A stretch of DNA of 64,000 bases from Dictyostelium discoideum (taxonomy: Eukaryota). Both the position numbers and the translations under genes were made by a program. Below the pieces are notes generated by a model. It worked only from the letters and a program-made list of their open reading frames with translations, had not been told where the DNA came from and made no database searches. This document shows positions 1,593-43,079 of the stretch, in pieces (the first letter of the stretch is position 1; each line of letters opens with the position of its first letter). Where the stretch lies: positions 1,984,001 through 2,048,000 of the forward strand of contig CM000154.2 of NCBI GenBank assembly GCA_000004695.1, in the 5' to 3' direction.

Positions 1593-4500
1593 ATGGGTAA
1601 AAAGAAAATTGATATAAATACAAGAGAAGATTTATTTTTATCATATTATAAAGAAATTGAAAAAAATAAATTTGATCTTTTAAAAATTTGCAGTGACAAA
1701 AATTTTTCAAAATCAAATTTTTTAAAAGCAGTTCACTGTTTATTTTCATTATCATATTTTTGTAAAATTAAAGATGAAAATGAAGAAGAAGAAGGAAAAG
1801 AAGAAGAAATAAATGATTACAAAGTTAAAAAAAGCACAACTGGTAATTATTACAGAAATTCCGAAGGCAAATTATTTAAAAAATCAAATGAAAAAGATCA
1901 AATAGATGATGTTTCCATATTTTATAAAAGATTACCAACAATCCAAGATTTTAAAGACACATATGACAAATAGTGGGTTTTTTTATTTTTTTTTTATTTT
2001 ATTTTTTTATTATTTATTATTTAATAAATTAACTTTTTTTTTAATTATTATTATTATTTATTTTTAAATTAGTGAAAATTGTTTAAATTCAGTTTATTAT
2101 ATTATTAGAAAAATTAAATTATTACATTTGGAATATTTTTGGGAAATTTTAGCTTCTTGTTATGGAACGATATCATTTATTAAATTTTTTAATATATTTT
2201 CAAATGAAATATTTTCACCAAGTGAAAATGGAGATTCAGTTTTTATAATGGTTGGAAAATTTTTTAGAAGAAAAGTAAGAGCAGAGACACATTATGATTT
2301 AATATTTTTAAAAATCATATTGGCCAACGCATCAATACCAATGATTTTAAAACTTGGAGTTAAAGATATAGGTAGATTTACAGAAAAGGAGGATATTATA
2401 GTATCATATTATAGAAACTTTTCAATAATTCATTCACTTAGATTTGATAATGTTAAAGAGTTTGCATTAGTTTATAAAACTTTAAAGAATAATTATCCAT
2501 CAAAAAAAAAAAAAAAAATTACACTTTTTGAAGAAAATGGGAAAATTAATGTTAAAACATCAAAAAAAGATTTAATGCTATTCGAATTTGTTTGTAAATT
2601 TGATTGTGTTAAAATTTTTAAGAAATATTTTTTACCAAAACCTCAAATTATTAATAATAATGATAATAATGAAATGTTAGAATGTATTAGTAGTGGATCA
2701 TATTCAGGATTTGATGAAAAGAGTAAACGTAAAATTAGAATTTTTTTTTCAATATGTTGCAGACAAATTTCACCTAAAATCTTAAAATGCATTGTCGATT
2801 ATGTCAAGGATGATATTGGTTTTTTAGATTTACAAAATAGGCAAGATATTTACATTGGAGATTCAGCACCTGAAAAAGTTTTATTTCTAAATTGTTTTTT
2901 TGGTAATCATAAAGAACAACGTGTTATAGATTTTTTTAATCTCCTTACATCCAAATCAATTATAATATGTAATACTATTAAAGAGAAACCGGAACTTTAT
3001 GATTATCGTTATATTACATTGTCAACTGTTGATTCTACATTTTATTTTTCTGATAGTCATAAAGGTGCTGATTTTGGTGTTTACACTGATGAGATTAATG
3101 TTATTATTAATAATGATGATATTGATTATGATTATATTGGTGATGATGATAATGATGAAGAAATAGAAGAAACAAAAGATTATGGTAGTAGTAGTAGTGA
3201 TATTGATGATTTTTATAATGTATTTGAACCAAAAGCATCAATGATACCAAATATATTGGATTCTTGTAGTTTGGAAATACTAAAAGCATATATTCAAAAT
3301 ATAACTGGAAATGGTTTATTCAAAATAAGTCCATCATTATTTTTAGCACATGATGTAACTAGATTAGTTAGAAATCCAAAACCAAAAACAGAAACTGTTG
3401 TTAAAATATTGGAATTCATTAATACAATTTCAAGACTTTCAGAATTATCAACCAACGGTGTTCCTTTCACTTTTTTAACTAATAGATTCGAAATTGTCAC
3501 TAGTATAATTATGTCATTACATGATGAACGATCTATTTCAAATTCTGTTGAACCAGTTCAATGGTTACGTGCACTTGCTCCATTTGTTTCAAATGATGAA
3601 ATGAAATTAATTATATACAAAGTTAGAACTCTTTACAACTATGAACCACATTCAAATGGTGAAATCAAATATACCGAATTAGTTAGATTATTTGATGTTC
3701 AATATCTTTTAACTAAAGGTAAATTTTCACTATCTCAATTTAATGGTTTTGAAACTTCAATTTTTTTAAATCCAAAATTACTTGATGGTACTATTAATTC
3801 AAATATTTTAAATTCAATGATTATTAAAGACAAAGAAAAACTAGACTTAAAAGAATTATTTTTTAAAGAAAAACCACTTTCAGAAGCTGAACTTAAAGAA
3901 AAATTTGAAATTGCTACAAAAAATGAAAAAGAGTTATTGGACCAATTAAAAAAAGAAAATGATGCTGAAAAATTAAAAAAGAAAAATAAATTAAAAAAAC
4001 AAAAAAATCAACAACAACAACAACAGGCTAAACAACAAGCTCAACAACAAAAACAACAACACCAACAAAATATTCAACAAAATTATGAAAATCAACATAT
4101 TGAAGACCAACGAAAATTTAACCAACAAACCAAAGGTCGACCTATCTCTCCTTCATCAATTCAAAACCAAAATTTAAATCCAACTTTATTACAAAATCAA
4201 AATCAAACTTCAAACCCAACACCAAATTTAGAGTCAACAAAAAAAGCAACACCGACAACAACAACAACAACAACAACAAATTCCAATACATCAGCAATTA
4301 TAAATGAAATTAAAAATCAAGATTTAAATCAACAACAAAATATAACAGAAAATATAAATGAAATATATGATGTTTCAATTGGTAAATTTAAATTTAATAA
4401 AAAAGAGTCAAATATATTGGGTAGAGGATCAAATGGTACATTAGTATTTAAAGGTATTTGGAATAATAGAATACCAGTAGCAATTAAACAAATGCAAAAG

Positions 4501-5336
4501 ATGTTTAACCCATTAATTAGTAAAGAAATTGAAATTTTAATTGGTTTAACCAATAAAAACTTAAATTTAGTTGGATACATTGATCAAGAAGAAGATGAAA
4601 ATTGTGTTTACCTTGGTTTAACTCTATGTGATGGTTCATTACAATCTTTATACGATCAATCAAAATTAAATGAATTTATTAATCAAAATAATAATCAAAA
4701 TAATAATAATAATAATAATAGAGTATTGGATTTAATTATTGGAATGATAAATGGTGTAATATTTTTACATGATCAAAATATAGTTCATAATGATTTAAAT
4801 CCAAGAAATATATTAGTAAAAGATAATAGATTAATAATTTCAGATTTAGGTTTAAGTAAGATGAATGTTAGTTCAACTTATAATTTCTCAACAAATGCAA
4901 TTCCAACTGGTCAAGATGGGTATCATCCTGTTGAAGTACTTTTAGAGAAAAGAAAAACTAAATCAGTTGATGTTTTTTCTTTAGGTTGTTTAATTTATTT
5001 TATAATGACAAATGGTGCTCACCCATTTGGTGATAAATTCTCAAGACTTCGTTATATCACTAAAAGCAAATACAATCTATCTCAATTATCAAATTTAAAT
5101 TTAGTGGCAACTCATTTAATTGAATTGATGATATCATATGATGAGAGTAAAAGACCGACCCTATCATCAGTTTTAAAACATCCTTTGTTTTGGGACAGTT
5201 TAAAGAAAATTAAGTTTTTAGAATCTTCTTTACGTTTATTGGGTGATCATGATTTTAAGAAATTCAATATCAATAAAATATTAATTAGTTGTAATAGTAA
5301 TAGTAGTAGTAGTAATAGTATTTGTAATAGTAGTAA

Positions 5337-5371
<35 letters not shown>

Positions 5372-5745
5372 GTAGTTGTAAAATTAGTAGCAGTAGTTGT
5401 TATTGTGTACCATTACCTTGGAATCAATCACTCGATTATCAATTAGTGGATTCTTTATCAAATCAAATTGAAAAAAAAGTAGCATCTTATAAATTTGATC
5501 AACTTCATGATTTAATTCGATTCATCAGAAATACTCTACAACATTATAATCAAATTTATAGAGATTTAAAACAAATTTTACCAAATAGTGATATTTTAGA
5601 GTCATTAAAATCACAACAGTCGGCTTTAAATTATTTCGAATCCAAATTTCCAACTCTAATAATTTTTTTATTTAATCATTTTAGTGCTATACCTGAAATT
5701 AAAAATTCTATCCATTTTTCAAATGATACTTGTTCAATTTTTTAA
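1593..5745 (+). CDS. IRE1/RNase-L-like protein kinase with C-terminal KEN (kinase-extension nuclease) domain, no luminal sensor domain (Dictyostelium irl family). Proposed exons 1593..1972 and ~2073..5745
   Basis: Seen in sequence: the main exon (ORF-track frame 2128..5745) contains a kinase core (GRGSNGTLVFKG..VAIKQM, HNDLNPRNILV, ISDLGLSK, GTxGYHPVE) followed by a KEN-like tail (HPLFWDSLKKIKFLESS...RFIRNTLQHYNQIYRDL). The 2128 'start' is TTG, so the real start is upstream. ORF 1593..1973 begins with a true ATG, and its TAG stop is split by a GT (GTGGGT) at 1973. AG at 2071-72 then restores the downstream frame (phase 2, TA+T). Exon 1 assignment is inference (non-consensus donor). Confidence 0.65.
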
Positions 5746-5889: not shown

Positions 5890-5962
5890 GGTTTTATAGT
5901 GTAATTGGTTAGCACCCAGGACTTTGAATCCTGTAATCTGAGTTCGAGTCTCAGTAGAACCA
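5890..5962 (+). tRNA. tRNA-Gln (anticodon UUG)
   Basis: Seen in sequence: GGTTTTATAGTGTAATTGGTTAGCACCCAGGACTTTGAATCCTGTAATCTGAGTTCGAGTCTCAGTAGAACCA. It has a 7-bp acceptor stem (GGTTTTA/TAGAACC), D arm, anticodon stem CAGGA/TCCTG with loop CTTTGAA (anticodon TTG at 5924..5926), T arm CTGAG-TTCGAGT-CTCAG and discriminator A. It closely matches canonical eukaryotic tRNA-Gln. Confidence 0.85.
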
Positions 5963-16632: not shown

Positions 16633-19459
16633 GAAAAAAAAAATATCATAAAAAAAAAGAATTTACAATAAAAGAAATAATAAAAAAATTCTAATCAAGT
16701 AAATAAAAAATAAATAAATAAAAAATAAATAAATTAAGAATAAAAATAAAAAATAAAAAAATAAAATAAAAAATAAAATAATAAAAAAAATAAAATAATA
16801 AAAAAAATAAATAATAAAAAAATAAAATAAAAAAAAAGAAATAATAAGAAGGAGAATAATTATTAAAAATCAAAAATTTTTTATTTAATTTAGAAAACAA
16901 CAATGAAAACTCATCAAAAGAAAATGAAAATAGTAATGAAAATAGTAATAATATGAATAATAAAGGGAAAGAAAAAGAAGCATTAAAACCAATTATAGAA
17001 GTTCCAGAGGAAGAAATGATTCAAAATAGTAGTAATAATAAAAACAAAAATACCGAAAATACCGAAAATACTGAAGATACAAATAAAAATAAAAATGAGA
17101 ATAAAAATTATTTCAACTATAAAGGTAGAAATAATCTTTCTGAAGAGGATGATTTAGTGGCAACAAATAGATTAGTTGAAGAATATATGTTAAAAACACC
17201 ACCACTCACCAAACAACTATTTCAAATGGATAAAAATCAAATAGAAACCTTTAGAATAGAATCAATGAATAAATATTTAGAAAATTATAAAGCTTCTAAA
17301 TATAGTAATATTACTAGTAATAAAAATAATAATGTAAATAATATAAATAATAATAGCCAACAACAAAACAATAATACAATGGTAATACCAATAACTACAA
17401 CTACAACATCAACGACAGCATCAATAAAATCAGCACCAACCTCACCAACGGCAACAGCAACGACAACTACTACAAATTCAATTAGTACTAGAAGGATGAC
17501 GGCAACAGCATCATCAACATCATCACCAACATCACCACCACCATCATCACCACCAAATTTATCAGTTCAACAACAACAGCAGCAACAGCAACAACAACAA
17601 TTAAGACAACAACAACAACAACTTCAACAACAAATTGAACAAATGCAACAGTTAATGAATGAAGAGGAAGCTCAACAAAAGGATGATAGTTTAGGAGAGA
17701 AAGGATCAGTATCTATGGAGAATTTAGCATATTTAGATCAACCGATTTATATTAGTAATGATGCACCAACTGAACCATTTATAGTTTGTCAAATTTGGGG
17801 TTGTGGTCAATTATTCACAGCTAGGGAATACAGAAATCATTTGGAGAATGAACATGATTCTTTGAATTGTAATGCAAATGGTAATCAAAATTACTTTAGT
17901 GGATATAACCATAATAACAATGGAGTCGATGTAATTAGCTATTCACAATTAACCGATAGAAATTCAATGGATAGATATTCAAAGGGTAGTTTACCTGTGT
18001 TAATCAATGGTTTACCAAAGAATTGGAATATTTCAAACTATAATCTACAATATCTCTTTCAAAAGTTACCCTTTAACAATGCAATGTGGTCAAGATTAAA
18101 CTTTAATACCGCTACAACTCAATGGGTTGGTAATGTTAATAAATTTCAAAAAACTGTAAATTCACCAAATAGATCATTCCATAAAAACTTTTGTTTAAAA
18201 GTTTCTTTTGATATACCTGTTTCTTGGGAACCGTTACCATACTTTAATTTAAATTATTTTAATGTTGTACAACAAACAACATCCAGTTGTAGTGGAAGTG
18301 GTAATGGTAGTAGTAATGGAATTGGTAATGGAATTGTTAATGATAATAATAATAGTAATAGTTTAAAAGGTGGTGCAGGACAAGGATTTTTAAAGAGTTT
18401 TTTATTTATTGGTAATCAAGGTTCAATAGTATCATTACATAGAAATTTTAGTGATGTTTCAATTTCAATGTTTAAAGGATCACAACGAGTTATCCTATTC
18501 CCACCAAATAAAATCTTAGAAATGGCTGCATACAATCGTTATCTCTTAAATCATCACAAAGATAGAACAAAATATATCTATTTCGATTATTATCTTTCTC
18601 CAGAAGATTTAGAATTAATTCAAAGATTCGGTGGTAAATCTGTTATCTTAAATAAAGAAGATACTTTATATATACCAGCTGGTTGGTATTATCAAATTAA
18701 TATTTTAGAAGAAGGTAAATAATATAATAATAATAATAATATAATATAATTTAACTTTTTTTTTTTTTTTTACTAATTATTATTTTATTTTATTTTCATT
18801 TAAATTTTTTTTTAGAAACAATTTCATTAAATTATTTTAATTTAACAACTTATAATTTAGAATTTTATATTCAAAATTTTAAACAATCAAATGATATAAT
18901 TTTAGCAGATTTATTTAAAGCTATTTTATTGGATTATTTTAGTCGTTGTAATTATTGGATTAATAATCAAAATCAATATATTTTAAAAGAGAATCAATCA
19001 ATATTATTCGTTGCAGATAAGGAACAAAAGTATTGGAATAGTTATGGTGTTGAATTAAAGAATCAATCAGTTTATCAACAAATTCTAATGGCATTACAAG
19101 AGGGTTTCATTCTATCCTCTTCAACATTATTGGTTAATAATTCAATCATTAGTAAAAGACAATTCCAAGAACAATTAAAACAACAACAAAGAAATTCAAA
19201 ACCAATCATTACAATTAATCATCCTCATCAAAATTTTTATCATCCTTATTTATCTCAAAGATTTTTATTATCTTCTTCAACTCCAAATACTACCACTACT
19301 TCCGCTACTACTTCAACATCATCATTATTATCTTCTTCCTCTAAAAATCTATTAAATATAATCGATCAAATTAATGTAATAGATAGTAATTTTTGTGATA
19401 ATTTAAAGAAAATCACTCATGATTTAAATTTTATTTTGATTTCAATTGCAACAAGATAA
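16009..19459 (+). CDS. JmjC-domain protein with a C2H2-type zinc finger. Exons 16009..16417, 16894..18714, 18816..19459
   Basis: Seen in sequence: a GTATGT donor at 16418 and AG at 16892-93 (phase 1, G+AA) link ORF 16009 to ORF 16953. A GTAAAT donor at 18715 and AG at 18814-15 (phase 1) link to ORF 18929. CQIWGCGQLFTAREYRNHLENEH is a C-x4-C-x12-H-x4-H finger. LFIGNQGSIVSLHRNFSD...ILFPP...LYIPAGWYYQINILEEETISLNYF is a JmjC cupin core. Confidence 0.7.
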
Positions 19460-19647
19460 AAATAAAAAAAAAAAATAAAAAAATAAACAAAAATAAAATA
19501 TTTTAATGAAAATTAAGAATAAAAAAATAAATAAAAAAAAAAAGGATTTGCTTTTTAAATTTATAAATAGATTTTTTAAAGTTTTAAATAGTTTTTTTTT
19601 ACAATCCTTTTATTTGTTTTTTTTTTTTTTTTTTTTTCCAGATTTGT

Positions 19648-20189
19648 TTAAGGTAATTCCCAAAATGTTTCATTAGTTTCTGTATTTAAATAATATTTTT
19701 CATTACTATCAGTATAGAGTACTTGATAAGGATATGGTGTGGGTGGTGGTCTTGATGAACTAAAACCACCATAGCTACTAGTGCTACCATTATATGAAGA
19801 GGATAAAGATGGTGATGAAACTGATTGGAAACTAGTTGAATAAGAAGATAAGGGTGAAGAAGATGGTGGTGAATGAGATTGTGTCATTTTTGGTCTTGAT
19901 GAAGTTGGTACCTTTGGTGGAATATTAATAGATTGTGTTTGATTTTGTTGTTTTAATAAAGATATTGATGGTGAACCTCTAGTTGGAATTGGTGGACCAC
20001 CACCGCCACCACTAGATGATGATGATGGAGATGAGAATGAAGGTGATGATGGTGTTGATCCAAATTTTTTGGGTAATGTTGCATTCCTATTAAAATTATT
20101 ACTAGTGCTTGTGGTTGTTGTTGTTGTTGGTGGTAAAATAGGTCTAGTTGTAGTTTTTGGTATAAATGATGATTTTGGTTTATTATCAT

Positions 20190-20245
<56 letters not shown>

Positions 20246-20638
20246 TATGATGATGTACTATTATTAGTTTTATCTGGTGATGGTGATGGTGATGGTGATG
20301 GTGATGGTATAATATCTTTAACATTAATTTCATTAATTTCCATACAAATCATTTTATCTAATTGAACTTGTGAATTGATTTCATTTTCTTCACCATCCAA
20401 TTGAAATGAAAGTGAAAATTTATCAGAGATTGTAATTTCAAATTTTAATTCAATCTTTTGTATAAAGGTTGATAAATTACATGGTACTGGAATTTGAATT
20501 AAACGTCTATCTTTATAAAATACTTTTAATGTAATTTTAACATCTTGAATCACACAACTAATTGGTCTTGATGGTAATTTCTTTGATGGAAGTGGTGGTG
20601 GTTTCGGTGGTAATGTTTTATTTGTCAATGGAGATATC

Positions 20639-25817: not shown

Positions 25818-25875
25818 AATTTATTTAAAAATTGACCCCCTCACATTCATAGTAAAATATTAAAATAAAATTAAT

Positions 25876-26460: not shown

Positions 26461-26523
26461 TTAATTGTATAATTTTAATATTTTACTATGAATGTGAGGG
26501 GGCAATCTTTAAATAAATTAAAT
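25818..26523. mobile_element. putative non-autonomous DNA transposon (MITE-like, ~0.7 kb) bounded by ~48-bp terminal inverted repeats. No ORF
   Basis: Seen in sequence: aatttatttaaaaattgaccccctcacattcatagtaaaatattaaaa at 25818..25866 is the reverse complement of 26474..26523 (tttaatttatttaaagattgccccctcacattcatagtaaaatattaaaa) with 2-3 mismatches. The interior is AT-rich and non-coding. No clear target-site duplication was seen. Confidence 0.35.
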
Positions 26524-26766: not shown

Positions 26767-27573
26767 ATGAATAATAATGCTAAATATTCATTTATTATTT
26801 TTTTAATAATTTTAATTTTAAATTTTTGTAATTGCCAAAATTATCAATATTTTGATTTTACAGATCATTCAAAATTAAATACATATGCAATAAATTCACA
26901 AATGGATCAATGTAATGTTAACGTTTTTTTTATGGCCTATACTGAAAATAACCCTAATGGTCCACCAGAAATAATAAATTTTATGTCAAAAGGTCCAAGT
27001 CCTTCAATTTCTCAAAATGTTATCTCAAGAAACCTAACAACTGTTTTTTATTCAGTTTTGTTAACTTTTGAATTTGGTGATTTGGAAGCCACATTTTTTG
27101 TTGACGATTCATATAATAATATAATTTATAATTGTTCTTGTAAAAGTATAGATTTTTATTATTATTATTATTATCTTTCTTTTTTCTTTTTTTTTTTTTT
27201 TTTAATTTATTAATTATTCATTTCCAAAATTTAATTTTTAATTTTTTTTTTTTTTTTTTAAACAAAAAAAGAAATTAATATTACAGATTTATCAATAGAA
27301 TATCAAACACCAGTTTTTTATACAGAATATACTAGTTTTGCTACTGTCTTTAAAGTTAAAGGTCTTCAATATCCATTAATTTTGGTACACGCCTATGGCC
27401 TTTATTCAATAACACCGATGGATAATTATTATTATTTATTAACAATAAATTCAAATTATTTTTTATATGAATCAAATGATTTATTAATTTCAATTTTGTT
27501 CCCAAATGATGAATCACTTGATTTTTCTTTAAATTTTTTTAGTAAGAATTATTAATAACTGACATTAGTTTAT

Positions 27574-27614
<41 letters not shown>

Positions 27615-28387
27615 TAACTGATTTTTTTTTTTTTTTATTTTTTTAAAAATTATAGTATCTACATCAACATTATATAGTGACATAATTAGTGACTTTAAAT
27701 TATACCCAGAAACTAAAAATTATACTGAAATTGCATTTAAACACGATCCATTGGTTACTTTTAGATCAGTTTTTTCAAAACCAATTCCACAAGTGTTTTT
27801 ACTATCTCAATCATCTTTTTTATTCTTAGCCAAACCAATTTATGGAACACCAGGAAACTTGACATATATTGCTTCAACAGTACAGACAACTGTTCCTCAA
27901 AACATCTCTTTGTTTTATCAAATTCCAGACAACACTTTTAAAAATATTTTTATCACTGAATTAATAACAAATAGTAAGTTATCTTTTATTTTTATTTTAT
28001 TTTATTTTATTTTTTTTCTTTATTTAAAATAAAAAGGTATTAATAAGTAATTACTTATAGTTGACACAGGGTCCAACATAAACAACAGTTTTCAAAAGAC
28101 TTTTATTTATAATAATCAAATATTCACATTTGAGTTATCAGATTTATTCAATTATGATTCAAAATGTTACTTTTTTTCTGGTAATTATTTAGGAACGGAT
28201 AATTCATATACCATAGTCAATGGTTTAACATTTCCATTTGGATTTGTAAATGGAAATAATAATGTATACAAAATGAATTTTACTACATTATTACCATTTG
28301 GTTTTGGTAGTGGATTTATTCTATCAATACATGAACCAGTTTCGGGAACCTCGGTTTCTTATCAAAAAATTCCATCTCTAAATAGTA

Positions 28388-28483
<96 letters not shown>

Positions 28484-31400
28484 TAAATTATTATAGATAA
28501 ACTAACCAAAAATTTTTATTTTATAAAAAAGTTGTAAATAATTCATTAACTTGTGAAATAATTTCTTTTGAATCAATTTATTTAAATGAATTTAAATTTT
28601 TATTAAGATTTCATGTTGTTTCATATTATGGTATTTCTTTGATATCAATTCCAACATTTAGACCAACATTTATTGGCAATGAAAATTTAGTATCAGGTAC
28701 AATTTATAATGGAGTTTGGGAATATATATATTTTGGTGAAGAAATAACTTTGGATAGAATTAAAATCATTTCACAATCTGGTCAAATTAAAGAAATTAAT
28801 TGTGGTGAACCTTTTTCAATAATAAATCCAAAACAAATTATAACAATTTCTAAAATTAAATTTAATGGTAATTATTTCATATATATTAATTCTTGTAACT
28901 ATACCACCACCTCCATCGTCATCACCATAACCACACCATCACTACTTTAATATTTATTAATAATGTTTATTATTATTTTTATTTAGGATTTAATTATAGT
29001 AATGATTTAAGTGATATATCATTCTTGTATAATAATGTAAATGTAACTAATCAAATGGTTTCAAATATTATGTATATAAACTTTACAAATATTGAAAAAT
29101 ATAAATATCAAACTATTGGTTTATATTTATTGGATTCAAAATCATTAAGGGATGAAAATTTCGATGGTTCTTTAGTTGGAAATTTTGATAAAAACATTTT
29201 TGGAAGTAAATATTATTTTTCAGATTTTGACCCAATTAATAATAGATTCCAAGTTAAATTTAATATTCCAGCAAATATTTTACCTGGAAAGTTAGATTTC
29301 ATATTAGCATTTTCTCAATCATTACGTATATATAGTCCATCTCTACCTAATAATTTCCAATTAAATATTACTTCATCATGTAAGTTTTTTTTTTTTTTTT
29401 ATTTTTTTTTTTTTATTTTTTTTTTTTTTCAATAATTTATTAATTCAATTTTTATTATTTTATTATTAAAAAGTAATTGATATTCAAGGACCAATTTTCA
29501 CAAATATTATTAAAAATCCAAATGGTAAATTTGGATGGATTGTTACTATTGAAGATTCAATAAATGGTTTAGATTATGGTATCATTTCAATATTTGGTTT
29601 ATTGGATAGTTCAACATACAATTTCACAATAAAACCATCAAATGCAATTAATGGTAATAAATGGAAAGGAGATTATGAAATATTTATTCCATATGATTCA
29701 GTATCAAAATGTATTTCTCAACAATATATGATTAAATTTGTTGAGCTTTTTGATAGTCAAGGTAATAGCGCTACATTTATAAAATATTTAAGAACAAGAG
29801 ATGGTTCAACAATTGTTAAAACATTGACAAATCCATTTATTAATTTTATGAATGATATAAATATTATTAAAATTAATTATACATGTCCAAATGAGGTAAT
29901 TAGTTCAGAATCACCACCTTCATTAATATCATTCACAATATCAAAAAGTTCAATTGATGTAGGTTTGATTAATACCGTTGATTTTAATTTCCAAGTAAAT
30001 GATTTGCTTGGAATTAAAGATTACCAATATCCAATAGTTTATTTAACAACTAGTAAACTTGATATAATTGAATGTGTTTCAAATTTAACTTCAAAATTAA
30101 CAAATCAATTTAAATGTTCAATTGAAATTCCAATTGGATTTGGATATCCAAATGGAATTTTAGTATCTGTTTATGGTTTTATAAATAATGGTGGTTTTTA
30201 TAGTGGCTATTGTTCTCAACAATTACTTGAAATGAATTTTGCAAGTTTCATATCAACTAATCAAACCTATACAATTAATCAACCATATATTAAAAGTTCA
30301 AATAAATTTTCCAATCAAGGTGGTACTTTATGGATTTATGGAAGAGGTTTTGCAATTGATTCAATTGTTGAGATTAAATTTAAAGATAATGGTTTCACTT
30401 CATTTACACAACAACAAACTAATTTAATTTATTCAAGTGCTATTTCAATTGAAAATGTTAGATCAACAAATCAACCATTTGTAGTAATAGTTAAATCATC
30501 TTCAAAAATTTCAAATGAATTTATAATTAATCCAATTCTTTTCAATTTTAATTATACAGATCCATCATCTACATCACCTTTACCTACAAATCCACCAAAG
30601 AAATGTTTGGGTAATCCAGAATGTGGTGGTGTAAATAATGGTTATTGTAATAATGGTATTGGATGCGTATGCTACACTCCATGGGTAGGTGAAGATTGCA
30701 CTTCAAAAGTTATTGTTATTCCTCAGCCATCGATTAATACAACAAACCCTACAACTGATATACCAATTAATGTTACAGATTCAACTCAAAATAATCTATA
30801 TAGATCATTAATTTCATTAGTATCATTAAGAGAATTAGATTTCAATAATAAACAAGTAAAATTATTTAATTTTGAAAAATGGGTATATTCAGAAATTAAT
30901 AATACAACAAACAAATATTTAACTACAATCTCAAATAAAAATAGTGTTGGTGAAATAGTTGAAACGAATATCACAGTAGTATTACAATGGTTTGAAAAGA
31001 ATGATACAGTAATATTTGCAGGTCAAACATTAAGAATGAATCCATCATCAATTAAATATACAGTTAATATTACAAGTTATTCATTCGCTCAAAATCTTAA
31101 CCATCTTCAATTGATTATGTCTGCATCATTACAATCCTCTAAAACTGATGATATATGCTCTTCAAAATTATTTGGTAATACTAGCGATGGCGATAATTCA
31201 AACTTTATGAAACTAAAAGTAAATGATCATTCAGTATATGGTAGATTTATTAAACGTGCAATTGTTGATAATAAAATTATCTCTGTCGATAATAATATAT
31301 TAGATGATTATTCAACGGATACAAATTCAAATTCTCATACATCTGAAACTTTTATTGGTATCTCAATTCCATTTTATAACTATAATGTATTGGTTGATCC

Positions 31401-31650
31401 TGATTTTTCAGTTTTAGTCGATTCTAATCCTTCATCTTCAAATGATGAAAATTCAATTTGCACATCTTCTTCAAAATTATCTAGTGCTCAATTAGCTGGC
31501 ATTATAATTGGTTCGGTTGCATTTGCTGCTATATTAGTATTTATTGCATCATATGCAATTATTCAAGGTAGAAAAGAAAGAAAATATTTAAATGATATGA
31601 ATAATAAATTATCATCAATGAATAAAAATGGAACTTCTGGGGGTGATTGA
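26767..31650 (+). CDS. secreted/type-I membrane protein, paralog A: signal peptide, IPT/TIG-like domains, EGF-like module, C-terminal TM (Tgr-like surface protein family). Exons 26767..27145, 27272..27541, 27656..27973, 28061..28384, 28532..28867, 28987..29379, 29474..31650
   Basis: Seen in sequence: all six introns are phase 1, with GT donors (GTATAG, GTAAGA, GTAAGT, GTAATT, GTAATT, GTAAGT) and AG acceptors. The frames agree with ORF-track ORFs 26767, 27751, 28273, 28639, 29025 and 29602. QPYIKSSNKFSNQGGTLWIYGRGF is an IPT/TIG signature. CLGNPECGGVNNGYCNNGIGCVCYTPWVGEDC is EGF-like. GIIIGSVAFAAILVFIASYAII is a TM helix followed by a short basic tail. Confidence 0.6.
28386..28492. repeat. (TAT)n microsatellite (~35 units) filling intron 4 of paralog A
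   Basis: GTAATT donor followed by tattattattatt... up to the acceptor region; it is translated as poly-Tyr in ORF 28273..28500. Confidence 0.8.
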
Positions 31651-32291
31651 AAAAAAAAAAAAAAAGAAATCTAAAAATAAAAAATTAAAAATAAAAAAAA
31701 TAAAAAATTAGAAAATAAAAAATTAAAAATAAAAAAAAATAATATTATGATAACAATAAAAATTAAACTTTTATTATAATTGCCCCCAAAAAAATTTTTT
31801 ATTTTATTTTTAATAAAAATTATTAACCCATTAAAAAATTTTTTTTAGCCTATACAAATTCAAAACCAATTAAAAAAAAAAAAAAAATATCTTTTTTTTA
31901 TTTTTTTTTTTATTTTTTTTTTTTCTTTTTGATTTAATCAAAAATATCTTTCTCATAGTCAAAATCAAAAGAAAAAAAAAAAATATAAAAAAAAATCATA
32001 TTATCGTCATACTCGAATCTCTTTATTTTTCAATAATATTTAGATATTTAATAAAAATCTAAATTTTTTTTTTTTTTCTAATATTTTTTTTTTTTTTTGG
32101 TAGACAGAACCATATTAATTGGTATTATTTTTGTTTATTTTTTTAAAATGATTTTTCTTGTTTTTAATTTTTTACTATTTTTTTTATTTTCTTTTTTATT
32201 TAATATCTAAAAAAAAAAAAAAAAAAATAAAAAAAAAGAAAAAAAAAAAAAAAAAAAAAATCACCTATTATCCAAAAAATACCAAACTAAT

Positions 32292-33470
32292 ATGAAACAA
32301 ATTTTAAAGTCATTATTAATATTTTTAATATTTTGGATAAACAATTTTTGTTTATCTCAAAGATCCTATGTTTTTTTAGACTATACAGATCCATCTACAT
32401 TAAATACATATCCTCCAACATCAAATGATGACCAATGCAAATATTTTATTAAAATTTTAGTATCAGGACAACTTCCTCCTGACTCATTAGATTTCGATGG
32501 AAATAATATAATATATCCAAATATTGTATTAGCCTCAAATAATGAAACAGCTTCTTTATTCACTGTTAGTTTTATTAGTGAATATGGGAATTATTTTATA
32601 TCTTTAGGTGTAAATCCTTGGGGAGAAATCTCCTATAATTATAGTTGTATAGGTATTTTTTAATTTTATTTTATTTTATTTTATTGTATTTTTTAATATA
32701 AAATGTGATATTAATTTTACTTTTTTTTAATAATTTAAATTTTATTTTTTAGAAATTGATAAATCAAAAATAAATGTTGAAACAAATAAATTATATTTTT
32801 CAGAGTATACAAATTTTGCATCATTTTTTAAATTAGATGGTTTAATATATCCTTTGGAATTATCATATGATCAGAATTTATATTCAATTTCAAGTTTAGG
32901 AAATTATTATTATTTAGTTAAATTCAAAACAATTGCATATATTAACTCTCAAACGAATCCATGGAGAGTTGATATTTTATTTCCAGGGTCAACAATGATA
33001 TCTATTTTTTTTAATGATTATAATGGTAAATGTTTTGAAAAACTAGAATAAATAAATAATATTATAATTTTTAAATAACTTTTTTTTTTTTTTTTTAAAA
33101 TTCCAATTCTATATAGAATCTATACCAGAAATAGATTCTCAAGAGATTGTAGATATTCAGTTACGTCCAACAAATGAATTTTATTCAGAGATGGGTTTTC
33201 AACATGGGCCATTAACAACTTTCAAATCAACTTCAAAAGCATTACAAACTCAATTATTTTTTTGGGATATGCAAGGTTCATTGCACTTAATGGCAAAGCC
33301 ATTATTTGGTATACCTGGTAATTTAACATACACCGTTTTAACTTTTCCATCTCTTCAAAATATAAATTATTCATTATCCTACCCAAATAATAATAATGGT
33401 TTTACAAAAGGTTTTGTTAATTCTCTTTTAACAAATGGTAAGTTAGCTTTTTTTTAAAAAATTTTATTTT

Positions 33471-33527
<57 letters not shown>

Positions 33528-36500
33528 TTTTTTTTTTATTAAAAAATTAAAATTAACACTTTTTTATATAGTTATATATGGAGGTAGTATTAATGATGGC
33601 GCTGCAACATTATCCCACTATTATGATAACAGTTCACTGTTAAATATTTACAGTGGAGGTTATTTTGGTTTAAAAAATTATAGTTCTAAATATTTTTATT
33701 ACAGTTTTCAACAACGTTCCTCAGAAGAAATAGGAGTTAGTTTACCATTTCCATTTGGATTTGTGTGGGGTAATAACAGTTATTACCATATGAATGTTTC
33801 AAAGTTATCATCATTATATTTAGCAGATGAATTTACTTTGATTTTTAAAGATCCTATTACTGGTCAAGAGATGAAATTAGCCAATATTATACCTGTTAAT
33901 ATAGGTAAATAAATTATTTTTAATCTTTTTTAATATTGAAATTAACCTTTTTACTAATTTATTTTTTTTCTTACAAGTCACAAATTATGATTTTCCTGAA
34001 ATAATAAATTTTCAAACGATTGATATTGGTAAATTCAAATTTATAGTAAGAATTAATATAAAATCACAATGGGGTGTGAATTTCTTTTCTATTGATCCAA
34101 TTGAACAAATTAAAATTATTATAAATCATGAACATTTAATTAGTGGTACAATATATAATGGAATTTGGGAATTTACACTTAATGGGTTGATTGAACAATA
34201 TGAAAAAATTACATTGGTCACTTTATGTGACAGCTTTCATTTGTTTTATTTTGGTGATTTATTCTCAATTAATTATCCATCAGAAACTATAAATTTACCA
34301 AAAACAAAATTTAAGAGTATGTAATTTACATTAAATAGATATTAAATTATTTAATTATTATTTAAAAAATATTAAATTTAAAATAATTATTTATTTATTT
34401 ATTTTTTAATTAGATTTCAATTACATTAAAGATTTGAAAAATATTTCTTTCTTTTATAATAATATTTCAGCAACAAATCAAACAATTTCAAATATTATGT
34501 TTTTAAATTTTACAAATATTAATGATTATAAAGATCAAACTATTGGTTTAAATCTAATAGATTCGAAATCTTTAAGAGATTTAACCTATGATAGTTATTT
34601 TGGAGCAGGTGGTAGTTTAAATGACGCTCAACTAAAACAATATTATTTTGCAGAGTTTGATTCAGTAAATAATCAATTCCAAATTCGTTTTAATATACCT
34701 GCAAATACAATTCCAGGAAGATTAGATTTTGTATTATCATTTTCAAACAAAGTTCATATATATAGTCCATCTTTACCAAATAGTTATCAACTATATGTAT
34801 ATCCATTAAGTGAGTTTTATTTTAGTTATTTACAAAAAAGAACAATTGTCTTATTTTATTTTATATTAATATTGTTTATTTTTTTTATTATTAAAAGATA
34901 TTGATATACAAGGCCCAGTTTTTACAAATATTATTAAAAATCCAAATGGTAATTTAGGATGGCTTGTTACAATTGAAGACAGTGTCAATGGTTTGGATTA
35001 TGGTGTAATTTCAGTTTATGGTTTAATTGATAGCTCGACATATAACTTTACAATTAAACCTTCAAATGCGGTTAAAGGTGATAAATGGAAAGGAGATTAT
35101 GAAATTTATCTTTCAAATTCTATTTGCATTACACAAGATTACATAATTAAATTTGTACAACTTTTTGACACTCAAGGAAATAGTGCTACCTTTATAAAAT
35201 ATATGGATTTATCAGATTCAGGTCCTATATTTTTTAGAACTATTACAAATCCATTCATATATTTTTACAATGATACAAATATTAATAAGATTTCCATTAC
35301 TTGTAAAAATGAAATTTTTGGTTCAAATTCTATACCACCACAATTATTATCATTTTCTTCCTCAACAAGCCAATTGGATGTTGGATTAATCAATAAAGTT
35401 GATTTTGATTTTGATTCATTTGATGATTTAGGTATTAAAGAAAATCAATTCCCAATTGTTTATCTTTCAACAAGAAAATATGAAACCATTCAATGTATTT
35501 CAAGAAACACTTCAATTTTTGATAAATCTACAAGATTTAGATGTTCAATTGAAATTCCAATTGGATTTGGATATCCAAATGGAATTTTATTATCAGTGTA
35601 TGGTTTTATAAATAATGGTGGTTATTTTAGTGGTTTTTGTTCACAACAATTACTTGAAATGAATTTTTCAAATTTTATCTCAACTAATGGCACATTTACA
35701 CTTGATCAACCATATATTAAAAGTTCAAATAAAATTTCAAATCTTGGAGGTAATTTATGGATTTTTGGTAGAGGTTTTGGAGTGAATTGTACTGTTTGGG
35801 TAAGATATATTGATGATATTGGTTTTAATCAATGTGTAACAACAACGATTTATTCAAGTTCAATTTTAATTGCAAGAATTAAACCAACCAATAACTCCTT
35901 TACCATTGTAATTAAAACTCAATCTACAAAGTCAAATGAATTCATCATCAATCCAATTGGATTTTATTATAATTATACTGCACCTACTTCACCTCCTTTA
36001 CCTACAAATCCACCAAAGAAATGTTTGGGTAATCCAGAATGTGGTGGAAGAAATAATGGTTATTGTAATAATGGTATTGGATGCGTATGCTACACTCCAT
36101 GGTTAGGTGAAGATTGTACTTCAAAAGTTATTGTTATTCCTCAACCATCAACAAATACAACAAACCCTACAACTGAAATACCAATTAATGGAGGTAATAA
36201 TACAAAGGATAATAATCTATATAGATCATTAATTTCATTAGTATCATTAAGAGAATTAGATTTCAATAATAAACAAGTAAAATTATTTAATTTTGAAAAA
36301 TGGGTATATTCAGAAATTAATAATACAACAAACAAATATTTAACTACAATCTCAAATAAAAATAGTGTTGGTGAAATAGTTGAAACTAATATCACAGTAG
36401 TATTACAATGGTTTGAAAAGAATGATACAGTAATATTTGCAGGTCAAACATTAAGAATGAATCCATCATCAATTAAATATACAGTTAATATTACAAGTTA

Positions 36501-37047
36501 TTCATTCGCTCAAAATCTTAACCATCTTCAATTGATTATGTCTGCATCATTACAATCCTCTAAAACTGATGATATATGCTCTTCAAAATTATTTGGTAAT
36601 ACTAGCGATGGCGATAATTCAAACTTTATGAAACTAAAAGTAAATGATCATTCAGTATATGGTAGATTTATTAAACGTGCTATTGTTGATAATAAAATTA
36701 TCTCTGTCGATAATAGTATTTTAGATGATTCAATAAATCCAGATTCAAATTCTCATAAATCTGAAACATTTATTGGTATCTCAATTCCATTTTATAGTGA
36801 TAGTGTATTGGTTGATCCTGATTTCTCTCTCCTTATCGATAATAGTCCCGCATCTTCAAATGATGAAAATTCAATTTGTGCATCCTCTTCCTCAAAATTA
36901 TCAAAAGTACAAATTGCTGGTATTATAATAGGTTCGGTTGGTTTTACTGCTGTGGCCATAATTTCAACTATTTACATTATTAGAAAAAGAAAAGAACAAC
37001 AAACAATTATAAACAAAATGAAGAGAGTTAGCCAATCAGTGAATTAG
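32292..37047 (+). CDS. paralog B of the same surface-protein family. Exons 32292..32652, 32753..33025, 33117..33437, 33572..33904, 33978..34316, 34414..34809, 34898..37047
   Basis: Same seven-exon, all-phase-1 architecture as paralog A. The frames agree with ORFs 32292, 32854, 33191, 34076, 34434 and 34993. It has a signal peptide MKQILKSLLIFLIFWINNFCLS, an IPT/TIG motif, the EGF-like CLGNPECGGRNNGYCNNGIGCVCYTPWLGEDC, and the TM GIIIGSVGFTAVAIISTIYII. Confidence 0.6.
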
Positions 37048-37391: not shown

Positions 37392-38131
37392 ATGATAAAG
37401 AATTGTTTAATTTATTCTTTTATTTTTTCATTACTATATTATAATTATTTCATATTTGGAGAAATTTTAAATAACCAAGATTATAACTGTATAAATAATA
37501 TATTTCAAAAAGCTGGTATTAGTACCGAAAATGATACCACTTTAGGTTATTACGATTTTTGTAGCACTAATCACATTGAATGTAATGGTAATAGTGTAAC
37601 TTCAATGTAAGACTAAACAAATAAAAAATAATAGTAATAATAAAAAAAAAAAAAAAAAAAAAAAAAAAGTTGAATTTCCATTGTATTAATAAAATTAAAA
37701 ATATAATAAAAGAACACTACAACAAAATATTGAACCATTATATTATACAGATTTTAATTGTTTTAAAAACCCTTTATACAATGTAAATTTTAATGGATCA
37801 ACTATTTCTCCAGATCTATTCACAACATCTCCAGGGTTTAGTTATAGATTACAATTCTTTTCATGTGCAAACATTTATATTAATCAACCAGTACCTTTAC
37901 AAACAAAAGAAATTTATATAAATAATTTAATTGAAGAATTGAAAACCAATATATCTTTTTCAAAAATCAAATCATTGAATTCCTTTATTATGTATATGAC
38001 AAACCCCTATGTACCATATAATTATCCTTATTTTTTAAATGATGTAGATTTTTACATTCCACTAAACCAATTAGTTATTTATTCTTTAAACGTACCTTCT
38101 TTTACATTTTTAAATCCATCCCAAGTGTAAT

Positions 38132-38180
<49 letters not shown>

Positions 38181-41051
38181 CTTTTTATTAATTTAATCAT
38201 TAAATAATTATTTTAGTGAAATTACATTGGGTAAAGGTTTTGATATTTCTTCATTGTCTAATTTTAATGATGTATCACATTTCAATAATTCATGCTCCAT
38301 TTCATTAAAAGTTTTGGAGGGATCAATATCAAGCTTCCCATTTTCTAAAGCAAATAATCTTTTAAAATCTGTGTATGTTACATTACCCGAATAGCTTTTT
38401 ATAATTTTATTTTCTATACTAATATTTTTTAAAAAACAGAACAATACAAAGCTATATTGATAAACCTTTGAATTTAATTGATTTGAGTAACTTAAAAATT
38501 ACATCTTTGTAAGTATTTTTTTTTTTAATAATAAATATAAAATCGAAAAATATTAATTTTCAATTAAAAGAATAATGTCAAATGTTTCAAATTTATTCAA
38601 CATTAACAACGAAATACCATTTACAAATTTTCCTTCAACAATTCAAACATTGTAGGTATTTTTTAAAATAAAAAAAAAAAAAAAAAAAATTTAATTTCTA
38701 ACAAACTCTTTGTGTTTAACCAAAAAAGCAATTTTTTGGATGGAAAGATTAACAGTATTCCTAAAAATATAAATGTAGAATTTATTTCATTTAGAAATAA
38801 TTCAATGAGTGGTCCAATTGGTAAATTAAGTCAATTTGGAAGCAATGTAAAAAATTTGTAAGTTTATAAAAAAAAAAAAAAAAAAAAAAAAATAAAATAT
38901 AGTAAATTATTAATTTTCTTTTGGATATTACGAAAAATTAGATTTATTTCAATGAATAAATTAAGTGGAACAATTGACGAATCATTTTGTGGCCTTCATG
39001 ATTATGATTTCTCAAATAATTCATTTACCAGTGTTCCCAAATGTTTTAGTTGTTTCTTCCCAAAAGATCCTAATTATGGTTCAGAATTAAAATCAAAATT
39101 TGTTACGAATCAATTTGATGCAAGTCAACCTCAAGGTAAGGTTTTTTTAATTTTTAATTTTTTTTTTTAAAATTTGTTAGGTTGTTTTTAACATTTCCTT
39201 TTTTAGACTGTAATGTTGTATTAAATTTAGTTTTAGAAAATGGATTATTAAAATTGTTTGGAGATTTCGTAGGATTATATAGATATGGATTCAATTCACA
39301 ACCAAACAATGTGGATTGGGTTTGGAAAAACTATACATATTATATTGGAACACCAAAACAAGGAACAACAATACCAGATCTTATTAGTTTTAAATATGAT
39401 TTCTATGAAACAAATTTCACATTATTTACATCATCAACCCCACCAAAAATTAAAACAGTTGAATCATTTCCTGCTTCAACCACATTTACATTCAATGGTG
39501 AATACTTTAATTATAATATTTCAGAGACAAATGTAAAAATAGGTAATAAAATTTGTAATATAATTTCAACAGAATTTTCAAAGATTGTTTGTTCAGTTGA
39601 TGAATTATTTGATTCGTCATTAAAAGATTTAATAACAACCATTCAAGTTGGAAATTTGAAACAACAAATAACTGTAACACCCTATATCATGAACACAGTA
39701 ATTCAATGTAATGATAGTTGTGATGGTGTTTGTTATACTTCCAATGGTACATGTGCTTCAATAGCGTTTTATGTTTCATCAGTTGTTCCAATTCAAGAAA
39801 ACACCGAAGGAACAGTACAGCTCTATGGATCATTTGGAGAAATTCATAATGATTTATCAATTACTATTGGTGGTTCTATATGTAATAAAACATATATTGA
39901 TGCTGGTTTAATTAATTGTACATTAAAAGCAGTAGGAAGTGGTATAAAACTATTGAATGTAACTCAAAATGGTAATTCATGGATTAGTAAATCAATGTTT
40001 AGCTATTTACCACCAAATACCGTTAAAAATTGCCCAAATAATTGTTTTTCAAATTTAAATCAAGGAGTTTGCAACACATCCCTAGGCCAATGTGAATGTT
40101 TCCAAGAATATAGTGGAATAGATTGTAGTCTCTATAGAGGTGGAAATCATCCAGAAACAACTAATGATGTAGATGAAAATACTGGTAAATCTACCTTATC
40201 AAATAAAGAAACTAATTATGAAATAGATATTATACAATTATTAGAAGTTGATATAAATGATAAAATCGTTAATAACTATTCTCTTGAAAACAATTGGAAA
40301 TTAAAAAATGTAACAAATAGTAAAACATTTTTCTTTTCCCAAAAAATTCAAAATTCAAATTGTGAATTAATTTCAATAATAGATCAAATTAATAGTGATC
40401 AAAGATTATCTTTTGCAGGTGTTGATTTTTATATTCAATCTGGAGCTATTAAATTAACCATTTCAATTAGTAACTATACATATTCAAGCTCTTTAAATAC
40501 ACTAAAACTTCAAATGAAAACAATTGCCAATCAAGAATCCACAAATTGTAATACCAAATCAACAGATATTGATACAAGTGGTATAGTTACAAATTCAACT
40601 TTAAATTATGTTACAATCAAAAAGAATAACAAAGTTTTAGTTGGTAGATTTATTAATCGTGTCTTATCAGATGGTAGATCTACATTTATCACTTCAAATG
40701 TTGTATCAACAAGTGATAAAGAATCTTTAATATTACAAGTTAATTTACCCCATTGTGTTTCAGAGTGTGTCATAGATCCAGGTAAAGTTTTTTTTTTTTT
40801 TTTTTTCCTATTAAAATAATTAACTATTATTAATGATAATTTTTAATATTTTCTTTTTAGATTTCTCATTACTAGTTAGCCCAGATTACATTGACAATTG
40901 TTCAACGAAAAGAAAATGGGTTATACCAGTTGCAGTTGTAGTTAGTGTAGTTGGCGCAGCATTTTTAATTGGACTTTCAATAATTATATATAGAAAGAAT
41001 CAAATAGCAATTAGAATTAAATTATCAACTATTAGATTATCAAAAAAATAA
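37392..41051 (+). CDS. related type-I membrane protein, paralog C, with plant-type leucine-rich-repeat ectodomain followed by IPT/EGF-like region and TM. Proposed exons 37392..37606, ~37713..38126, 38217..38372, 38440..38508, 38571..38651, 38729..38857, 38942..39135, 39207..40791, 40861..41051
   Basis: Seen in sequence: signal peptide MIKNCLIYSFIFSLLYY. The small exons encode LRRs (LSNLFNINNEIPFTNFPSTIQT; FLDGKINSIPKNINVEFISFRNNSMSGPIGKLSQFGSNVKN; MNKLSGTIDESFCGLHDYDFSNNSFTSVP). The large exon has IPT-like repeats and the EGF-like CPNNCFSNLNQGVCNTSLGQCECFQEYSGIDC. The last exon encodes the TM WVIPVAVVVSVVGAAFLIGLSIIIY. Donors are GTAAGA/GTAATA/GTATGT/GTAAGT/GTAGGT/GTAAGT/GTAAGG/GTAAAG with AG acceptors. 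The middle exons are the least certain. Confidence 0.5.
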
Positions 41052-41269: not shown

Positions 41270-43079
41270 TTATCTACCACTATGACCAATTGTAGGACTT
41301 GAATAAATATAAGTATGAGAATTTGCATCTTCTTTAATAGATTCTAATTTTGCTTCATTTGATTCAGAGTAAAAAGTTTCTTCATGGTCAACAGTTGATG
41401 AAGATAATTCTTCTTTGATCATTGGTGGGAGAGATTGAGATTGTGGTTGTTCTTCAAGTTTTAGCTTACTAAAAGATCTCTTTAATTGAGTTGGTGTACT
41501 TGAATTTGTGAAATCTCTACTGAATTTTCTGACACTCTTTACGGATATATTTAATTTAGAATCATCATACTCTGGTATTTTATTTGAATCAAAGTTTGGA
41601 TCATTTTTGAATTTATCGACGACAGAGTCAACTCTTTTATCACGTTCATCCCAATATTTACCATTAAAGTCCCAACGATAACCATATTTTGAATCTTCTC
41701 TCTTTGAGAAATAATTTGGTTTCCAAATTTCTTTTCTACTTTCTCTAGTCTTTCTTTTTTCTCTTTCACGCTCTTCAATTTTATTTTTCTCTTTATTTGC
41801 AAGTTTATTCTCTTCTCTCTCCAAGTAAATTCTATCCATACGAACTCTTGAATCGGTGGAGGGTAAAACTGCTTGATATTCTTTAGACATTTCATTTAAG
41901 CCTTGAATCCATTTACCATGCTTCCATTTATTGAAATTCTCGGGTGGTTCAATTGTAGCTTCCCAAAGTGTAATCTCACCAGAACTCTTACGAGATGGAC
42001 CTTCAGAGTGTTTCTTTGCTTTGACATATTTATCCCATTTACCATTAATATGTACACGTGCATTACCCTTTGAATCAAGAATTTCACCTTGTACTTTTCT
42101 TTGAGTACCTTCGAACCAACCAGACTTTTGGAAATTTATAATGGCTTTCTCACCAGTGTTATGATTCTCTACTATTAAGTCACCATAGTGTTCTATCCAC
42201 ATCTTTCCAAATATAATATTATGACAAATTGCGGATGGAACCTTCCAAGTGAAATGTTCACCAGTAGAATTTAAATATAAATGATTTTGACCATGACTGA
42301 AAACATCTAATGAATTACCCCAGAATTTTGTAGTAATCCATGATTCTTGTTGTAAATCGAAAATTTCACTTGTAGTTTGAGCAATACCAATTGGTGGATG
42401 ATGTGAAACTTGTTCACAAAATGATTTATATCTACCTTGTTTATCAATATATTCAAATGTCTCTCCCAATAATGGATTAAATGGTTTTGCTTTAAAAAAA
42501 AAAAAAGAAGGAAAAATAAAAAAATAAATTAGTATTTATAAATTTTAAAAAATTATTAAAATAATAATAATAATAATATTTACCAGTTCTTGTATATGAA
42601 CTAAATACAGCAATATTAAAAGCGGTTAAATACATTAATCTATCGATTGAATCAGAACAAGTTGAAGCTTTTTCAATTAATTCTACAAAACGTAATGGTT
42701 CTAATTGACATTCTAAAACGGTTAATGGTTCAAAAAAGTAGACTGGTAATGAAACCAAAGACATTGGATCCTTTCCAACTAGACCACCAACTTTTTTCCA
42801 TAATGATTTTTTATCTTCTGGAGCGGATTCGGCATCACCTATTTCATTACCAAAATTGTAGTCATCCAATGTATCGATTTGTTCTCCAATGTTTGGTTCA
42901 CCTCTTTTATCATATGAGTCGGATAGAGAATTACTATCGTCACTGTAGCTACTTGCAGTATCTGGTACAACTTGGTTGCCATTCATATCATATTTACCAA
43001 CAGGTGATTCAGATTTGGATTTTCTTGAACTCTTTGGAGTACCATCCTTTTTAACTAACTTTTTGAAAAAATTTGACAT
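41270..43079 (-). CDS. oxysterol-binding protein (OSBP/ORP) family member, short form without PH domain. Exons 43079..42584 and 42489..41270 (~571 aa)
   Basis: Seen in sequence: the OSBP fingerprint EQVSHHPPI and KPFNPLLGETFEY span the intron (GTAAAT donor rc of 42578..42583, AG rc of 42490..42491, phase 1). This is consistent with ORFs 42492..43079 and 41270..42469. Confidence 0.8.

Follow-up and report, generated by a model that had tools for sequence, protein, structure and literature searches.

Two tandem genes of Dictyostelium discoideum AX4, here called paralogs A and B, share within their last exons a patch of about 0.8 kb that has very probably been overwritten repeatedly by interlocus gene conversion, leaving this part of two otherwise old and diverged duplicates under concerted evolution. 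The genes lie in a stretch of 64,000 nucleotides (contig CM000154.2 of assembly GCA_000004695.1, positions 1,984,001 to 2,048,000, forward strand), referred to below as the window; coordinates are those of the window unless another locus is named. An earlier note on this DNA had described a near-identical tract inside diverged last exons and had read it as the footprint of recent non-reciprocal conversion between tandem duplicates. The tract is real and the process is the one proposed, supported by homogenized synonymous sites, by divergence on both sides of the patch and by normal divergence between orthologs. Instead of a single recent event, however, conversion has recurred in at least four independent lineages and runs in both directions.

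A near-identical patch within diverged last exons

Paralogs A and B are old tandem duplicates that lie 5.4 kb apart in the same orientation. Their seven-exon models were built by eye; all introns are GT..AG introns of phase 1, and the translations match the annotated AX4 proteins exactly in an exact-sequence look-up, each protein being present in two separate records. The starts of the last exons given in the earlier note (29474 and 34898) are correct. According to Pfam, both proteins carry DUF7743, DUF7035, DUF7034, the EGF-like DUF7949 and the ComC supersandwich domain (ComC_SSD). The two genes and the segments discussed below are as follows.

26767-31650, forward strand: paralog A (Q54IE0), 7 exons, 1398 amino acids, identical to AX4 XP_636537.2, 'EGF-like domain-containing protein'; exons 26767-27145, 27272-27541, 27656-27973, 28061-28384, 28532-28867, 28987-29379 and 29474-31650
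32292-37047, forward strand: paralog B (Q54ID9), 7 exons, 1390 amino acids, identical to AX4 XP_636538.2, 'EGF-like domain-containing protein'; exons 32292-32652, 32753-33025, 33117-33437, 33572-33904, 33978-34316, 34414-34809 and 34898-37047
30577-31380, forward strand: conversion zone in A, about 0.8 kb (804 bp), coding for about amino acids 1042-1309
35995-36798, forward strand: conversion zone in B, the partner of A 30577-31380 by alignment
30790-31294, forward strand: core tract in A, 505 bp with 2 differences from B, the most strongly homogenized part
36211-36715, forward strand: core tract in B, the partner of A 30790-31294
30772-30789 (B 36190-36210), forward strand: hypervariable linker between the EGF-like and supersandwich domains, with in-frame GAG/GGA-type indels of varying length and clustered substitutions
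31295-31380 (B 36716-36798), forward strand: 3' shoulder, with a 3-bp indel at 31307-31309 and clustered substitutions
30106-30290 (B about 35533-35717), forward strand: weaker secondary patch, with a within-genome A/B identity of 86-90% and a dip in the proportion of synonymous differences (pS)
30786-30974, reverse strand: antisense open reading frame (ORF) of 62 amino acids; its partner at 36141-36395 has 84

In a self-BLAST of the window, A and B form the only substantial repeat at the DNA level and give a single alignment (28947-31530 versus 34372-36951, 80.7% identity). In the global alignment of the two genes, identity is 40-65% over exons 1-5 and 65-85% from exon 6 through the 5' half of exon 7, after which it reaches a sharp plateau; the uniform divergence that the earlier note had named as a possible counter-result is not seen. 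Over exons 1-6 the proteins are 38% identical. The 5' part of exon 7 has a nucleotide identity of 73-75%, and the upstream exon halves, previously put at 65-75% protein identity, measure 63.5% (73% in nucleotides). Downstream of the plateau identity returns to 60-85%, is 60% in the predicted transmembrane segment and tail, and the intergenic DNA can no longer be aligned.

The core differs at 2 of 505 positions (30966 G/T and 31260 A/T; 99.6% identity), its longest exact runs are 293 and 176 bp, and 168 of its 169 codons match in protein, in agreement with the earlier description of about 500 bp with 2-3 differences and with the identical protein stretch quoted there. The larger tract is somewhat less uniform than had been described: the partner in B of A 30585-31450 is 36003-36868 and not 35995-36850, and the identity over this pair is 94.0% and not 95-99%. 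In terms of domains, the conversion zone comprises the EGF-like DUF7949 and most of the ComC supersandwich domain. Its outer 5' edge, at 30576/30577, is the same in all genomes compared and is preceded by a Ser/Thr/Pro linker with a 3-bp indel. The hypervariable linker is the usual 5' edge of the core and the 3' shoulder its usual 3' edge. When the tract edges were searched for repeats, only short chance matches came up, and there was neither a simple-sequence hotspot nor a direct repeat on the flanks.

Synonymous sites: copying versus constraint

The number of synonymous substitutions per synonymous site between the paralogs (dS) was calculated by segment with the Nei-Gojobori method (NG86). 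It is 1.02 in exons 1-5, 0.71 in exon 6 and 0.65 in the 5' part of exon 7, falls to 0.23 in the EGF shoulder and to 0.020 in the core, and rises again to 0.34 in the 3' shoulder and 0.69 in the transmembrane segment and tail; the high values are near saturation and are underestimated because the G+C content of third codon positions (GC3) is only about 0.1. Among the degenerate core codons that encode the same amino acid in both copies, 2 of 163 show a synonymous change, compared to 28% in the 5' part of exon 7 (binomial P = 1.3e-20), and the observed run was reached in none of 20,000 permutations.

Such similarity could in principle be maintained without any transfer of DNA if strong purifying selection acted on the protein itself, or on a nucleotide-level element that overlaps it (an antisense ORF or an RNA, for example), and both the agreement of the tract with the boundaries of the EGF-like and supersandwich domains and the presence of antisense ORFs would fit with this. 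Orthologs, however, have diverged freely at these very sites. Their pS in the core amounts to 0.20 for AX4 versus D. citrinum and to 0.09-0.15 from strain to strain, values that resemble those of the flanks, and the ratio of nonsynonymous to synonymous differences (pN/pS), 0.13-0.26, is in line with that of other segments. In comparisons of species the module has diverged to the same degree as the remainder (pS about 0.5), its protein changing about as fast as that of the other parts of the exon (pN 0.28 versus 0.32-0.36). Selection at the protein level is unable to erase synonymous differences, and constraint alone is therefore excluded. As for an overlapping element, Rfam gave no match across 26-38 kb of the window, and the antisense ORFs, which had been reported as identical and 60 amino acids long, are near-identical, with phenylalanine versus leucine at residue 3 and different C-termini in addition to their different lengths. 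They follow trivially from the DNA identity and are irrelevant. Overall, the probability of constraint without transfer is negligible: the patch mutates and drifts like its surroundings, and its two copies change together.

The other end of the genes behaves differently. In exons 1-5 (A 26767-28867 versus B 32292-34316), nonsynonymous divergence between the paralogs (dN) is 0.62 with a saturated dS of about 1.0 and a pN/pS of about 0.75, which suggests relaxed or diversifying selection on the distal ectodomain.

Recurrence in other genomes

Syntenic loci with both genes were retrieved, with the B orthologs as anchors, from FIR and FIW (D. discoideum), FIY and FIZ (D. cf. discoideum) and D. citrinum, and were compared to AX4. 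The orthologous locus of D. dimigraforme (L004) ends just past B and yielded no A ortholog. Exon 7 is 90.5-99% identical between orthologs of the five D. discoideum-group genomes, with a pN/pS of 0.13-0.49 by segment. The number and order of the A/B genes are the same in all genomes compared.

Within each of the six genomes the cores of A and B differ at very few positions (2, 2, 8, 4, 3 and 3 of 505), whereas the same gene differs between genomes at 8-22 positions in the D. discoideum group and at 40-41 between AX4 and D. citrinum. The A/B identity of the flanks is about 75%, 84% and 60% in every genome. A scan of the whole genes in 100-bp segments, including introns and 300-bp flanks and covering all six genomes, identified 30583-31370 as the only stretch in which identity between paralogs equals or exceeds that between orthologs, with a within-genome paralog identity of 91-99%. 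Site classes in the five D. discoideum-group genomes give the same picture: the core contains no sites fixed between the paralogs, 23 that are shared within genomes and 4 trans-paralog sites, and the EGF zone (30577-30771) has no fixed and 8 shared sites, compared to 185 fixed and no shared sites in the 5' part of exon 7. Fixed differences end at 30576 and restart at 31381, and inside the zone they occur only at the linker indel and one adjacent site.

The trees reflect this. A neighbour-joining tree of the sequence outside the zone groups the copies by gene (all-A clade with 100% bootstrap support), while that of the core groups them by genome, with A/B pairs as sisters at bootstrap values of 98, 98, 52, 100 and 100%. 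Moreover, substitutions private to one lineage are found in both of its copies: 5 in AX4 (30863-31287), 2 in FIY, 6 in FIZ and 30 in D. citrinum (30585-31290). Outside the zone, no private substitution common to both copies was found in the D. discoideum-group genomes.

These data bear on whether one recent conversion in the AX4 lineage could account for everything. Taken alone, AX4 with its 2 differences in 505 bp does resemble a single young tract, but the patch is also homogenized in FIR, FIW, FIY, FIZ and D. citrinum, and AX4, FIY, FIZ and D. citrinum each have their own private substitutions in both copies. Had there been only one ancestral event, the difference between A and B should equal or exceed that between orthologs; the observed values are 2-8 core differences between paralogs and 8-41 between orthologs. 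One event is thus a highly improbable explanation. Conversion at this locus is recurrent and ongoing, it has taken place in at least four independent lineages, and homogenization is older than the split between D. discoideum and D. citrinum.

The comparison with other strains that the earlier note had proposed shows that the edges of the tract do differ between genomes. In FIZ, conversion crossed the linker at 30772-30789: its A copy has B-type states at 30773-30789 and 31295-31324, and its B copy has A-type states at 30630-30632, 30759 and 31340, which demonstrates longer tracts and transfer in both directions. Direction could be read from flanking marker states in FIZ only, and the donors of single events in AX4 cannot be assigned. 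In D. citrinum, identity is higher in the 3' shoulder.

An error of assembly or polishing, or a collapse of the two copies, has to be considered as well, since paralogous repeats are a known source of error and the comparison was made at the level of assemblies. Both copies, however, sit in unique, in-frame flanks 5.4 kb apart and still show 2-8 differences; six genomes display the same pattern, each with its own variants, and two separate records contain identical AX4 proteins. Reads from flanks that are less than 85% identical would not cross-map, yet the edges are sharp. The probability of an artefact is practically nil.

In the secondary patch (30106-30290), which the 100-bp scan also picks out, fixed differences are rare or absent and certain sites are shared or trans-paralog; it is probably an occasional or older target of conversion. 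In D. citrinum, 9 private sites common to A and B were found outside the main zone (29521-30405, in the 5' part of exon 7), three of which (30240, 30253 and 30285) fall inside the secondary patch; roughly 0.4-1.3 such sites would be expected from chance parallel substitution. Rare short conversions may therefore occur upstream of the main zone as well.

The module elsewhere in the family

An unlinked array in D. dimigraforme (L001, L002) contains at least five family members, among which pS is 0.00-0.16 from the EGF module to the stalk, compared to 0.19-0.45 upstream of the module and 0.08-0.44 in the transmembrane segment and tail. The low pS indicates that the EGF and supersandwich module is homogenized elsewhere in the family too.

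A pair of genes in D. firmibasis (L009 12447-15131 versus 17863-20622), a different and non-syntenic family member, has an identity of 98.7-100% across the entire last exon, transmembrane segment and tail included, and looks like a very recent whole-gene duplication or a whole-gene homogenization. Being identical throughout, the pair was set aside as evidence on patchy conversion. It does show that whole-gene events happen in this family and, as unequal crossover is a known event in tandem arrays, a recent partial duplication or an unequal crossover that produced a chimeric gene might be suspected at the A/B locus. A single crossover, however, leaves one junction and identity up to the end of the unit, whereas here divergence returns on both sides of the patch, and the gene number and order are constant across genomes; such an origin is extremely improbable.

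Gene conversion and its likely course

Non-reciprocal interlocus conversion is the sole explanation that fits the data. Its effect is that a new substitution in one copy is either erased or spread to the other copy. The likely route would be the repair of a double-strand break in one copy by synthesis-dependent strand annealing without crossover, the template being the paralog, which lies 5.4 kb away, on either the same chromatid or its sister. The process could be self-sustaining, as near-identity inside the patch would favor strand invasion and hence further events. The indel-rich linkers with less than 85% identity (30772-30789, 31295-31324 and the Ser/Thr/Pro linker before 30577) may act as heterology barriers at which mismatch-repair anti-recombination would end the heteroduplex. 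Break repair, strand invasion and mismatch-repair anti-recombination belong to the general knowledge of homologous recombination.

Several observations weigh against this explanation or limit its reach. The mechanism is read from a footprint, and no conversion event was directly observed. GC3 is not raised in the tract (0.12 versus 0.07-0.14 in the flanks), and the signature of GC-biased conversion is thus absent; overall G+C shows no rise either (core 0.24, 5' part of exon 7 0.24-0.26). The missing rise may only reflect the extreme AT bias of the genome. The bootstrap value of the FIW pair is no higher than 52%, and the very close relationship of FIR and FIW leaves both without private shared sites. 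The D. dimigraforme array, coming from one genome, shows homogenization and not recurrence.

The earlier note had left open whether conversion diversifies or homogenizes surface receptors. At the A/B locus it homogenizes the membrane-proximal EGF and supersandwich module, and the suggestion of diversification does not apply. It is conceivable, though unlikely, that homogenization is more than a neutral consequence of homology and is maintained by selection because the module must match in co-expressed members, for example for cis-association, a shared partner or a signaling step, while the DUF7743/DUF7035/DUF7034 head diverges quickly. This would amount to a receptor system with a variable head and a constant stalk, similar to the clustered protocadherins, and to a candidate second code for cell-cell recognition or adhesion besides tgr. 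Homogenization of the same module in the unlinked D. dimigraforme array and the agreement of the zone with domain boundaries are compatible with selection of this kind. If homogenization is selected, the supersandwich module would have a function that needs identity between paralogs.

Comparison with known systems

No literature was found on these two genes or on concerted evolution of the family, within an incomplete coverage of journals. The locus is a new and well-documented example of a known process and represents no new kind of mechanism. Regional conversion has been described for the variable exons of the clustered protocadherins in fugu, zebrafish and human, where the 3' membrane-proximal part is more than 99% identical among paralogs, including synonymous sites, while the distal ectodomains are diverse (PMC1852091, citing Noonan et al., 2004, PMC353213). 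This is the closest analogy to A and B. Both systems consist of tandem paralogs that encode single-pass surface proteins with one large exon, in which the 3' membrane-proximal ectodomain is homogenized and the 5' distal part has diverged, in a lineage-specific and repeated manner. In contrast to protocadherins, the A and B proteins are unrelated to them and lack cadherin domains, and only two genes are involved at the A/B locus. The fugu tracts, unlike that of A/B, have a raised GC3, and the A/B tract stops before the transmembrane segment and tail, whereas the protocadherin tract takes in the 3' end of the variable exon.

Within D. discoideum, interlocus conversion or recombination has been proposed for tgrB1, tgrB2 and tgrB pseudogenes, whose paralogs intermingle within clades (bioRxiv 10.1101/2025.10.22.684067). 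Like A and B, these genes form tandem surface-protein families of the same organism, and they are developmentally relevant. The gene beside B, here called gene C (TIG and ComC_SSD domains), shows that the supersandwich domain is common to both families, while A and B are without IPT/TIG domains. For tgr, the discussion is of conversion that would generate new haplotypes at hyper-polymorphic recognition genes; in A/B its effect is to homogenize a single module, as recorded in several genomes by private substitutions that both copies share.

The primate fetal gamma-globin genes HBG1 and HBG2 are a classical case of concerted evolution, with a tract bounded by a simple-repeat hotspot in an intron. 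As in A/B, the tract is discrete and sits within old duplicates whose flanks have retained their old divergence, and the shared substitutions are specific to each species. The A/B tract, however, has both of its edges in a single coding exon, where they fall on indel-rich linkers between domains.

The A/B locus should be of moderate interest to molecular evolutionists and Dictyostelium biologists, as it displays domain-restricted concerted evolution of a haploid protist very cleanly and in several genomes, with edges, direction and recurrence that can be read from site patterns. In practical terms, trees or orthology calls of ComC/supersandwich genes that are based on the EGF-SSD region would wrongly group genes by species and suggest false recent lineage-specific expansions where duplications are old. 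The locus also offers a natural reporter for ectopic recombination in Dictyostelium, with which mitotic versus macrocyst-meiotic conversion, mismatch repair at heterology barriers and tract length could be approached.

Family membership of A and B

A and B are predicted to be type I surface proteins and uncharacterized members of the dictyostelid ComC-supersandwich superfamily. Paralog A matches ComC_SSD (PF22933) with 61.7 bits (cut-off 24) at amino acids 1107-1321 and DUF7949 with 51.3 bits at amino acids 1051-1086; the scores of B for the two domains are similar. The N-terminus of A/B is hydrophobic (FIIFLIILILNFCNC), and a second hydrophobic stretch, AGIIIGSVAFAAILVFIASYAII, is followed by about 30 residues, as read from the sequence. 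An exhaustive search recovered 872 relatives at E<=0.001, counted as representatives at 50% clustering. Full-length A and B have no match to PF01833 (IPT/TIG) at E<=0.01, and for lack of this domain an assignment to the Tgr (TgrB1/TgrC1) allorecognition genes was ruled out. A comC-type or gene C-type identity (LRR_ComC, TIG and ComC_SSD) was ruled out too, as DUF7743, DUF7035 and DUF7034 stand in that place. In the SSD region, the identity of gene C to family members is only about 24%.

Two public gene models in this group of genes are probably annotation errors: a 2337-amino-acid model of D. dimigraforme (L004 12030-21471) fuses the orthologs of gene C and B, and a 2686-amino-acid model of D. 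firmibasis (KAK5584904.1, L009 10001-20690) fuses two tandem copies.

Neighboring genes and other features of the window

The window has a G+C content of about 22%, short AT-rich introns and intergenic poly-A/T tracts. The gene order around the locus is RabGAP, A, B, gene C and OSBP, with an OSBP exon (41270-42469, reverse strand) that is 100% identical to D. discoideum AX4 OSBP-11 (Q54ID7). Gene C (about 37392-40819) has orthologs with LRR_ComC and a length of 1006 amino acids in other strains. It lies between B and OSBP in AX4, FIW, FIR, FIY and D. citrinum, while in D. cf. discoideum FIZ no gene C was called and B is immediately followed by OSBP. A whole surface-protein gene thus seems to be polymorphic for presence or absence (observed at about 37392-40819 of the window and at L007 15101-16919).

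Between the RabGAP gene and gene A, the arms of an inverted repeat of about 35 nucleotides (TTGACCCCCTCACATTCATAGTAAAATATTAAAAT and its complement; 25832-25865 and 26466-26504), lengthened by poly-A/T runs, flank about 600 bp. In an exact 17-mer search both arms were found in AX4 only, and one arm in FIW and FIR. A small DNA element might have them as its terminal inverted repeats. Intron 4 of A (28385-28490) contains a pure (TAT)n microsatellite of about 100 bp and intron 3 of B (33460-33535) contains a pure (TTTA)n microsatellite of about 70 bp, neither of which is common to both paralogs. The sole tRNA gene in the window, a tRNA-Gln with anticodon TTG (5890-5962), lies just downstream of a large ORF with kinase and RNase 2-5A domains (2128-5745).

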